A DNA stretch of 64,000 nucleotides from Bacteroidota bacterium (GTDB taxonomy: Bacteria; Bacteroidota; Bacteroidia; Bacteroidales; VadinHA17). Shown in pieces: positions 15,928 to 18,258 of this stretch; the stretch's first letter is position 1; every line of letters starts with the position of its first letter. Below the pieces are notes generated by a model, which worked only from the letters and a program-made list of their open reading frames with translations, was not told the DNA's origin and ran no database searches. A program made the translations under genes and the position numbers. The stretch lies in assembly GCA_034659275.1 (NCBI GenBank), contig JAYEGY010000049.1:121-64120 (forward strand). The letters are read 5' to 3'.

Positions 15928-18114
15928 TTAAATCTCAAGGTTGGACATTTCTTCGCTTATCTCAAACTCATATTCCGGGTATTCATAAACCGGTATCCTG
16001 GGTTCTGTTTCACCTATTGAATATCCCCATATGCTTTCATATTCATTGGGGTTCTCACCCAGGTCTGCCAGCTGGCTAAGGTATTCACTTATTGACTTTG
16101 ATTCAATAATGATAACCTTGCCCATTTTATTAATGATGGGACTATGCAGCCTGGTGGGATCATGGTCAAACTCGAGTATTCTCCGTCCATACCTTGTTAT
16201 ACCTATCACCCTGTATGTCAGGCTTTTGCCCACGCCGGGAAGGTTAATCACGTTCCTGTCGGTTGCAAGGAAGGGTATATTGGCTTTCTGCCTTAATGAA
16301 TTTATATTTTCCTGGATGTTTTCGGCTTCTGTAGGAAATTCCTTTATCTCATCATAATATTCCTCAGGTATGAAGCCAAGGACTTTTTCTTCAATCTGCT
16401 CCTGGACAGCCCTTGCATTGGGCGAAAAATTAAAATTATTCTCCATATAACCTTTCACTGAGAAAGTATAATATGTTAACACTCCGATGTCATTAAGCAC
16501 CTTTCTCAGTTTGGAAGTGTGGCCCCTCCTCGAAGCCGCGGTGGTAAATACCAGCTGGTTTGTGACAGTCCAGCCTGCCCCTATCAGTTGTCTCAATCCG
16601 TCTCTTGCTTCAGGTGTCACTTCCATCGGTGATTCAAAATGTGTCTGTATGAGAAACTGTTTTATTCCTATGGCAGAGGCCTTTACCTTGAAATCACGTA
16701 AGACGGCAGCCAGTTCAGGACTTAATCTCTGGGGCAGGTATACCGGCAAGCGTGTACCTAATCTTACCCTTTGTATTTCGGCATGCTTTTCTCCCTCCTG
16801 AAGGTTTTTATTTGCTTTCTTTTTTCTCAGTGCCATATCGTAGACCGCATCGAGTATCTTTGCAAGTGATTTATCGGTACTCATAAGGGCATCCCCACCT
16901 GTAATTAGAATATCCCGTATCTGGGTATCCTTTTCGAAATACAACATTATATCTTTGAGCTTTTCACTCCATGATTTTCTAGGCTTAAGTTTATCAAGGT
17001 TGAAGTTAAGGTGACCTCTCTGGAAATCATACATGCGCTGGCATGATGAACATAAACCTGCACATGCCCTACCCATGGTATCAGGTATCAGTATTGCCAC
17101 TTCAGGATACCTGCGGTGCACATTATTATAGGTTGGTAATATCCATCCTGCAGCATTGGGTTTCCCGGGTTCAACCAGGTCTTCTTTTTCCCATGCCACT
17201 ATATGCCCGAATTCGTCAACCAGTTGCTGGCTGTAAAGGACATAATACCTGATTGCAAGGTCGGCTCCAATTGCAAAATACGGAACCCTGACATGCAATA
17301 AAGACAGGTAATAAGGATTGACAAAGAAAGGTATTCCTTTTGCCCTGGCCTGGTTCAGTATCTTCATAGTATCAGGATCAAGGGAATTGCCCAGCATTTC
17401 GTTCAATAAGTCGGGCGACCTGACGGCAAACTTGAGGTGGAACGAAGGTTCCTTCCACCATTTAAGCATCTTAAGGAATTTTTGCTCTCTTGATAATCCT
17501 TCTTCGAAATAATATTTCTTATCATTGATAAGTCCTGCCTCCATCTTATCAATGAATATTTTTATTATCCTGTCCCTGTTTTCCTCCCTGAGCTTCACTA
17601 TCCTGGGATCCAGTCCCGAGGGGAAGCGTTCCATCCATGACCTCATCTGCTTTTTATCGGGTTTCCTGCATACATAGGTTCCTGCCAGCTGCCTGAACAG
17701 GTACAGCATATCATCAAAGAATGCCGGCTTGGCACCTCCCGTACCGTAAGTTACGGCCATCCATATCATTTTTATGGGATTACTTATTGCCTTCTCTCCC
17801 CTCAAGTTAAGATCCTCATAGGAGCGTCCTGCATGATCAACATAATCCAGAATCCTGATAGCTGCATAATCTTTCCATTCCAGCCTTTCAAATGCTTCTC
17901 TTCCCTTGACTTCTGCTTTGTAAAATTTATAGGCTTCGGGCCTGCTTTCAAGTATGCCTGATACCCAGTCTTTGACACCAATTAAGGCTTCAGTCTCATT
18001 CCTCGCATTTCTCATTATCTCTTCCAGTACCGGGTTTTCTTTCAGCAGTTGTTTAAGTGTACGGTGAGCTTTTACATTAATGGCAATCCTGTCAAGATCT
18101 AAAAATTTGTCCAT
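15928..18114 (-). CDS. Long KamA-family radical SAM/PLP aminomutase (glutamate 2,3-aminomutase-like residues)
   Basis: HRRYP, CAGLCSSCQR, LITGGDAL, RLGTR, THF, YYTFSVK, NLPGVGK; 728 aa. Confidence 0.88.
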   Translation of the reverse strand: MDKFLDLDRIAINVKAHRTLKQLLKENPVLEEIMRNARNETEALIGVKDWVSGILESRPEAYKFYKAEVKGREAFERLEWKDYAAIRILDYVDHAGRSYEDLNLRGEKAISNPIKMIWMAVTYGTGGAKPAFFDDMLYLFRQLAGTYVCRKPDKKQMRSWMERFPSGLDPRIVKLREENRDRIIKIFIDKMEAGLINDKKYYFEEGLSREQKFLKMLKWWKEPSFHLKFAVRSPDLLNEMLGNSLDPDTMKILNQARAKGIPFFVNPYYLSLLHVRVPYFAIGADLAIRYYVLYSQQLVDEFGHIVAWEKEDLVEPGKPNAAGWILPTYNNVHRRYPEVAILIPDTMGRACAGLCSSCQRMYDFQRGHLNFNLDKLKPRKSWSEKLKDIMLYFEKDTQIRDILITGGDALMSTDKSLAKILDAVYDMALRKKKANKNLQEGEKHAEIQRVRLGTRLPVYLPQRLSPELAAVLRDFKVKASAIGIKQFLIQTHFESPMEVTPEARDGLRQLIGAGWTVTNQLVFTTAASRRGHTSKLRKVLNDIGVLTYYTFSVKGYMENNFNFSPNARAVQEQIEEKVLGFIPEEYYDEIKEFPTEAENIQENINSLRQKANIPFLATDRNVINLPGVGKSLTYRVIGITRYGRRILEFDHDPTRLHSPIINKMGKVIIIESKSISEYLSQLADLGENPNEYESIWGYSIGETEPRIPVYEYPEYEFEISEEMSNLEI

Positions 18115-18174: not shown

Positions 18175-18258
18175 GGCGTGGGTCTGGAACCGAACAGCCT
18201 GAACATGCTGTAAGCATGTGAGGGCTGTGAGCTCGACGAAATTAGTCAGACCCACACC
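18175..18258 (-). ncRNA. Candidate structured cis-regulatory RNA or sRNA in the 5' leader of the kamA-like gene
   Basis: Nested stems GGTGTGGGTCTG/CAGACCCACGCC, GAGCT/GGTTC, ACAGCC/GGCTGT, ACATGC/GCATGT; G-U pairs on the minus strand are C-A mismatches on plus; followed by TTTT. Confidence 0.6.

Follow-up and report, generated by a model that had tools for sequence, protein, structure and literature searches.

A 728-residue KamA-family protein of Bacteroidales as a putative long-form, glutamate-type 2,3-aminomutase

Introduction

A stretch of 64,000 nucleotides from the genome of a Bacteroidota bacterium (GenBank assembly GCA_034659275.1, contig JAYEGY010000049.1, positions 121 to 64,120), referred to here as the window, carries a gene for a protein of 728 aa that resembles the KamA family of radical S-adenosylmethionine (SAM) aminomutases dependent on pyridoxal 5'-phosphate (PLP). 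In the databases its relatives go by the names 'KamA family protein' or 'lysine 2,3-aminomutase', and the question raised by the locus is whether lysine is really the substrate. In lysine 2,3-aminomutase (LAM), Asp293 and Asp330 bind the epsilon-ammonium group of lysine, while the glutamate 2,3-aminomutase (Eam, EC 5.4.3.9) of C. difficile has Lys and Asn at these positions. A first-pass annotation of the DNA proposed that the same exchange is present here. Our analysis suggests that the protein is best explained as a member of a divergent bacterial subfamily of long-form, glutamate-type PLP/radical SAM 2,3-aminomutases, a reading to which we give a probability of about 0.55 on the basis of sequence comparison.

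Both the logic of the Lys/Asn signature and the long-form enzyme are already known, from 2007 and 2022 respectively. The former reportedly goes back to work by Ruzicka and Frey in 2007 on Eam of the C. difficile type. The latter is said to have been described by Tunckanat et al. in 2022 as MmarC7_1783 of M. maripaludis, a glutamate 2,3-aminomutase with an N-terminal extension of ~160 aa, whose function was reportedly predicted from the substrate-binding residues and for which beta-glutamate was reportedly detected after expression in a methanogen. In a preprint, the study of Tunckanat et al. (2022; Biochemistry 61:1077) is summed up as dealing with an archaeal enzyme making beta-glutamate as an osmolyte.

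Predicted substrate-binding residues

The gene and the predicted catalytic and substrate-binding elements of its product are:

15928..18114, minus strand: complete open reading frame (ORF) of 728 aa plus stop, encoding the long-form KamA-family PLP/radical SAM aminomutase (P0001; ORF translation, NCBIfam, HMMER against the PDB)
17035..17064, minus strand: residues 351-360, the [4Fe-4S] motif C351-x3-C355-x2-C358, then Q359-R360 (coordinate mapping, alignment)
16891..16899, minus strand: residues 406-408, GGD, the SAM-binding motif of KamA enzymes, invariant (alignment)
16453..16455, minus strand: Lys554, standing where LAM has Asp293 and Eam has Lys, and predicted to pair with the distal carboxylate of the substrate (HMMER, MAFFT, hhalign)
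16225..16245, minus strand: residues 624-630, NLPGVGK, in which Asn624 is equivalent to LAM Asp330 and the Eam Asn, and Lys630 is the PLP lysine (LAM Lys337) (MAFFT, model strands)

Mapping of residues to coordinates places CAGLCSSCQR at residues 351-360, YYTFSVK at 548-554, VINLPG at 622-627 and NLPGVGK at 624-630, with the codons of Asn624 and Lys630 at 16243-16245 and 16225-16227. The cluster motif followed by QR, Lys554, Asn624 and Lys630 are thus all found where the first-pass annotation had put them.

Reference sequences of both enzymes were collected. Residues 13-304 of LAM were rebuilt from the PDB alignment with LAM of Clostridium subterminale (2A5H) and used to fetch canonical LAM genes, one of which (L027) is 97% identical to 2A5H. 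For Eam, Clostridia genomes carrying LAM were searched with the model TIGR04368, which gave four proteins above its cut-off of 650 bits (L107-L110). The 728-aa protein, its paralog and relatives were then aligned with three LAMs and these four Eams, using MAFFT L-INS-i. In the alignment, K554 stands at LAM D293 and the Eam Lys, N624 at LAM D330 and the Eam Asn, K630 at the PLP lysine Lys337, and R360 at Arg134, which binds the alpha-carboxylate. The four blocks concerned read as follows:

D293 block: LAM YYIYQCD; Eam YYIFHSK; 728-aa protein YYTFSVK
D330-PLP block: LAM VVDAPGGGGK; Eam IINAPKGKGK; 728-aa protein VINLPGVGK
Cluster-Arg block: LAM CTRRR; Eam CQRRR; 728-aa protein CQRMY
HRYP block: LAM THRYP; Eam TRRYP; 728-aa protein HRRYP

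HMMER against 2A5H aligned residues 540-552 to LAM 279-291, and the family profile pairs YYtFsvK with YYIYQCD of LAM. A profile comparison with Eam using hhalign (probability 100%, E 1.4e-61) runs from the Eam N-terminal element through the D293 position. The proposed exchange is therefore borne out, at both positions by the MAFFT alignment with real LAMs and Eams, and at D293 also by hhalign: the residues found at 293 and 330 on a proper alignment are not Asp but the Lys/Asn pair of Eam.

QR, Lys and Asn are present in all 121 members of the 728-aa subfamily, and in 197 of the 198 members of a sister family of 560-660 aa, which is the methanogen-type long form and is called here the 600-type. 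Across ~320 sequences diverging to 29% identity, no variation is seen in the cluster cysteines, GGD, THF, NQ or the PLP lysine. Compared with LAM and Eam, the 728-aa protein has one residue fewer in the Gly-rich loop that precedes this lysine. Judged by these alignments, the Lys/Asn/QR pattern is not a product of chance, and the protein is very probably an active aminomutase with a pocket for an acidic substrate.

Family assignment and fold

A Pfam scan gave only a sub-threshold Radical_SAM match. The protein does not reach the cut-off of TIGR00238 (KamA family; 135.9 bits, cut-off 199.2), TIGR04368 (Eam; 99.2 bits, equivalog cut-off 650) or TIGR03820 (AblA; 85.8 bits, cut-off 525.4), and scores 76 bits with the arginine mutase model and 63 bits with the EpmB model. 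The NCBIfam order is therefore Eam > AblA > arginine mutase > EpmB, and the 600-type likewise ranks Eam over AblA. On TIGR00238 the 600-type scores 314-347 bits and passes, whereas the 728-aa type fails, including the 738-aa paralog described below (155.3 bits). Homology to KamA is nevertheless not in doubt, because the family profile matches LAM 2A5H, which is the only solved relative, with E 7e-59 (4e-11 for the single sequence), and because of the 100% probability in hhalign.

AlphaFold2 predicts a compact structure for the whole protein, with a predicted local distance difference test score (pLDDT) of 84.8 and a predicted template modelling score (pTM) of 0.89. In a Foldseek search against the PDB the best match is again 2A5H (E 1.4e-13, TM-score 0.63 on the target), the next matches having E > 6e-3. 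The protein thus has the CxxxCxxC and GGD motifs, the PLP lysine in a Gly-rich loop and the LAM-like fold by which a KamA-family member is recognised.

A maximum likelihood (ML) tree separates EpmB and LAM from Eam and the long forms (support 94/89). The long forms make up one clade (100/100), in which the 728-aa type forms a monophyletic group of its own with a long stem. The proposal that the enzyme is not a lysine mutase gains support from the Lys/Asn pair in place of both Asp, the features found only in Eam, the order of the model scores and the split in the tree.

Comparison with known enzymes

The closest known relatives are of the 600-type. They are homologous from end to end, the helical domain at the N-terminus and a C-terminal GE..YxxIW region included, and have the same invariant elements: CQR, RRYP, GGD, SRR, a K-G pair where LAM has D293, and N-x-P-x-x-G-K with its shortened loop. 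The 600-type genes also stand alone. Methanogen members have 594-598 aa and are found in M. maripaludis (C5, KA1), M. vannielii and Methanotorris igneus, with the motifs YYLFNTKGK, VFNVPKLGK and CQRNW. The 728-aa protein is 26% identical to the M. maripaludis protein of 594 aa over 613 columns (E 9e-48).

Bacterial Eam (C. difficile type) shares Lys/Asn, CQR, RRYP, an N-terminal element resembling IPTG..RKRKIL and the lack of a zinc tail, with 25-27% identity over the core, and the same PLP/SAM/[4Fe-4S] chemistry is to be expected. It has only ~420 aa, to which the 728-aa protein adds an N-domain of ~160 aa, insertions and a longer C-terminal domain, besides having the shorter Gly loop. LAM is the only significant structural match and has the same cluster, SAM and PLP motifs. 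It differs in having Asp293 and Asp330 rather than Lys and Asn, CTR rather than CQR, and a zinc site (Cys268 and CxCxxC) that is absent here, and it is 312 residues shorter.

N-terminal domain and insertions

The remaining parts of the protein are:

17668..18114, minus strand: residues 1-149, an all-alpha domain at the N-terminus, found only in long-form enzymes (whole-length alignment with the 560-660-aa sister family, AlphaFold2)
17539..17667, minus strand: residues 150-192, the element FPSGLDPRIVKLREENRDRII, homologous to the N-terminal ~50 aa of bacterial Eam (IPTGI..RKRKIL) and not in LAM
17122..17538, minus strand: residues 193-331, comprising the insert 193-215 of the 728-aa type, the KamA N-terminal helical region (W220; PYYLSLL, 266-272) and the insert 313-331
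16279..16383, minus strand: residues 578-612, helical insertion private to the 728-aa subfamily and not in the 600-type, Eam or LAM (alignment, AlphaFold2)
15931..16224, minus strand: residues 631-728, C-terminal domain, which lacks the zinc cysteines of LAM and closes with the acidic/aromatic tail YEYPEYEFEISEEMSNLEI, private to the 728-aa subfamily

An unexplained N-terminal extension of ~300 aa had been noted at first. Such an extension exists, with the shorter length of ~203 aa relative to LAM (W220 aligns with LAM W17) and ~163 aa relative to bacterial Eam, and it can now be placed as a domain of the long-form clade. The rest of the additional length is made up of internal insertions at 193-215, 313-331, 422-446 and 578-612 and the C-terminal tail.

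Residues 150-192 pair with the N-terminal segment of Eam itself, which LAM lacks, and for residues 1-149 the counterpart is the N-domain of the 600-type, in an alignment which spans residues ~5-698. Eight residues of the N-terminal region are invariant and common to the long forms (F132, L139, G145, P165, G167, R176, N179 and I183), those from P165 onward lying within the 150-192 element. The extension is thus ancestral to the long-form clade and not peculiar to this gene, and on this alignment the N-terminal helical domain is a hallmark of the whole clade. Modelled alone, residues 1-216 are predicted to be all-alpha (pLDDT 84.4), and a Foldseek search of this model against the PDB gave no match to a known fold (best E 1.1). 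Mean identity within the 728-aa subfamily is 0.69 for the N-domain and ~0.8 for the core, with the insert 578-612 the least conserved part (0.56).

A sub-lineage of 700-712 aa (G378, G497, G495, G376, G310, G334, G339; P0123, P0126) has another, shorter N-terminal start. It matches the 728-aa protein only from residue ~86-130 on, at ~52% identity, so that the family varies most over its first ~100 residues.

Distribution and paralogs

Whole-length matches to the 728-aa protein fall into more than 8000 clusters at 90% identity, mostly from metagenome-assembled genomes of Bacteroidales or Marinilabiliaceae, plus Saccharicrinis. The protein of Saccharicrinis sp. GN24d3, a cultured carrier, is 73% identical. 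Clustering at 50% leaves a handful of full-length representatives, and the next tier is the 560-660-aa family, which occurs in Eremiobacterota, KSB1, Fidelibacterota, Desulfobacterales, Ignavibacteria, Bacteroidales and Methanococcales. The 728-aa subfamily is mainly limited to Bacteroidales and its distribution is patchy: it was found in 39 of 61 close relatives, 75 of 301 genomes sampled from the order and 4 of 201 sampled from the phylum. A housekeeping function was considered and rejected on the last two counts.

A paralog is encoded on a different contig of the same genome; its product has 738 aa, is 58% identical and keeps all motifs. Most relatives hold two copies, and at least three paralog lineages are seen in the ML tree. 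In two loci (L005:8001-12568, and L008 at G219:C19:38152-42687) paralogs ~58% identical lie in tandem, ~195 bp apart. Some tandem pairs stand behind a gene for a 221-aa SLFN_AlbA_2 protein. The tandem arrangement hints at hetero-oligomers or subfunctionalisation.

Proposed reaction

The mechanism can be outlined by analogy with LAM and Eam, from which we infer substrate, reaction direction and physiological role. The reduced cluster, held by C351, C355 and C358, would cleave SAM bound at GGD (406-408), and the resulting 5'-deoxyadenosyl radical would take a hydrogen from C3 of the substrate. PLP, released from Lys630, would hold the substrate as an external aldimine, and the amino group would move from C2 to C3 by way of an azacyclopropylcarbinyl radical, after which the hydrogen would be given back. 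Arg360 is expected to grip the alpha-carboxylate, and Lys554 and Asn624, standing in place of the lysine-binding aspartates of LAM, would hold the distal carboxylate. The likeliest reaction would be the interconversion of L-glutamate and beta-glutamate; we rate L-glutamate as a somewhat better than even choice of substrate.

Alternative functions

Several observations weigh against assignment as a long-form glutamate mutase. The 728-aa protein is below every curated NCBIfam cut-off for KamA-type enzymes. The M. maripaludis protein of 594 aa shares the failure on TIGR04368, with 251 bits against 650, so the model evidently covers the short bacterial form only and failing it carries no weight. 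This 594-aa protein is presumably MmarC7_1783. The identity to methanogen proteins is only 26-29%, the 728-aa type has ~130 more residues than the 600-type, with insertions of its own and an acidic C-terminal tail, and the stem of its clade is 2.9 changes per column long. The hhalign alignment ends at residue 570, before the D330 region, so that the equivalence of N624 and D330 rests on the MAFFT alignment, the motif and the model strands (620-625, 629-631). Both types occur together in three genomes (G221, G482, G494). According to a 2005 review, early nuclear magnetic resonance work spoke against a glutamate aminomutase route in methanogens. Given the long stem, the low identity, the private insertions and tail, and the co-occurrence with the 600-type, the function of the 728-aa type may have diverged.

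The alternative which survives best is accordingly that the chemistry is the same and the substrate is not free L-glutamate, the 728-aa subfamily having been neofunctionalised relative to the methanogen type. Candidates are other acidic amino acids (aspartate, 2-aminoadipate, D-glutamate, a gamma-glutamyl compound) and amino-acid groups that form part of a larger molecule, with the N-terminal domain and private insertions providing recognition or regulation. The long stem followed by strong conservation would fit this, as would the four private inserts with the acidic tail, the two or three paralogous lineages per genome, sometimes in tandem, an N-domain of unmatched fold under constraint, and the SRR motif (529-530), which is invariant and not in Eam or LAM. 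Occasional co-occurrence with the 600-type would also fit. Mutual exclusion of the two types as a sign of equal function was considered and set aside, since their joint presence in 2 of the 301 order genomes is close to the expectation under independence. However, the residues around the predicted pocket that are invariant in the 600-type (CQR, K554-G555, E558, N624, K630 and SRR) are also invariant in the 728-aa type, no ligase, carrier or transferase is conserved beside the gene, and the N-domain is not special to the subfamily but common to the methanogen-type proteins. We regard a different substrate as possible and clearly less likely than glutamate.

More speculative still, and in our view rather unlikely, is that the Bacteroidales subfamily acts on a substrate so far unassigned to any KamA enzyme, or has a glutamate activity which the N-domain and insertions gate in response to, say, ionic strength or a metabolite, with paralogs forming hetero-oligomers that replace the zinc-linked tetramer of LAM.

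A radical SAM protein without aminomutase chemistry, either catalysing some other radical reaction or keeping the scaffold as a structural or regulatory pseudoenzyme, would account for the scores below all curated KamA cut-offs, the one-residue-shorter PLP loop and the low confidence of the cluster loop (350-376) in the AlphaFold2 model. Low confidence is expected in this loop because the model was built without cofactors, and the invariance of cluster cysteines, GGD, THF, NQ and PLP lysine across the ~320 sequences makes such a protein very improbable.

That the enzyme is a LAM making beta-lysine, as source databases name it and as KamA superfamily membership and the best PDB match might suggest, is hardly credible, with Lys and Asn standing in every member where LAM has its two lysine-binding aspartates, CQR for CTR, no zinc tail, 85.8 bits against 525 on the AblA model, no ablB or epmA adjoining, and the real ablA/ablB pair of the genome decayed and located elsewhere.

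A link to modification of elongation factor P (EF-P), as in EpmB, was also considered and rejected: the EpmB model has the lowest score, there is no epmA, and efp lies nearby in one locus only.

Possible physiological role

This very contig occurs in a brine metagenome, and salt-lake metatranscriptomes contain fragments of relatives. For a lone gene in a brine habitat, direct use of the product seems most plausible, and it might then serve as an anionic compatible solute. Methanotorris igneus, which has a 600-type protein, accumulates beta-glutamate (PMC1224877). The suggestion that beta-glutamate serves here as a compatible solute, made when the sequence was first read, gains support from the whole-length homology to the 594-aa M. 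maripaludis protein, from the N-terminally extended mutase reportedly making beta-glutamate in the 2022 study, and from the brine contig.

On the other side, fragments of relatives are also found in freshwater sediment metagenomes, and Bacteroides thetaiotaomicron appears to carry a member. The brine genome also encodes two trehalose-6-phosphate synthase domains (G000:C106:6501-7910 and C82:38391-39740), which count against the osmolyte role but do not decide the matter; they lie in open frames of 752-762 aa that look like fusions of the OtsA-OtsB type. No BCCT-family betaine/choline transporter was detected in the genome, and we found nothing in the literature on beta-glutamate in Bacteroidota. 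Use of the product as a compatible solute is therefore a tentative proposal, and the osmolyte role a weak prediction.

In any case the database label 'lysine 2,3-aminomutase' appears to be wrong for a large family, carried by about a quarter of the sampled Bacteroidales genomes, whose members belong with the glutamate-type enzymes. If beta-glutamate is made, the gene would be a genetic marker for its production by anaerobic Bacteroidota in sediments, saline ones and others, and possibly in the gut, and the methanogen finding of 2022 would be extended to bacteria. If the substrate differs, the subfamily would add a new specificity to an enzyme family that is a classic for its mechanism. The proteins also provide natural long-form variants for probing the role of the conserved N-terminal domain.

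Genomic context

The gene is monocistronic, with rlmN convergent and rtcB divergent, and this synteny is kept within the genus only. No conserved operon or metabolic partner was found in 25 Bacteroidales loci, nor in 5 loci of the sister family from five phyla, which fits a product made by a single enzyme. No riboswitch or leader was found with Rfam, either upstream of the gene in the window at E <= 1 or in 19 related loci at gathering thresholds. Between rtcB and the aminomutase start there is a long imperfect hairpin of 84 nt followed by a U-run (window 18175-18258, minus strand). It has no Rfam match and is absent upstream of the orthologs in 13 other loci, and is thus not a conserved leader of the aminomutase family.

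In one paralog lineage, a protein of 215-234 aa with an SLFN_AlbA_2 domain and a C-terminal helix-turn-helix-like region is encoded directly upstream and in the same direction. It was seen in seven loci (L001:42-707, which is on contig C66 of the same genome, L005, L007, L008, L016, L020 and L021). This neighbour is probably a regulator or a sign of shared ancestry rather than an enzyme partner, and may be a dedicated regulator.

The genome contains no canonical LAM or Eam, only a decayed ablA and ablB. These are the remains of an N-epsilon-acetyl-beta-lysine operon, which lies outside the window (G000 contig C99, locus L003:950-1728, minus strand). The remnant of a canonical ablA is a chimera of 77 aa that has lost the cluster motif, its N-terminal WKDWQWQ region being fused directly to the block GTRMPVVLPYRIT. 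Next comes a truncated ablB of 170 aa, which scores 128.8 bits on TIGR03827 against a cut-off of 205.

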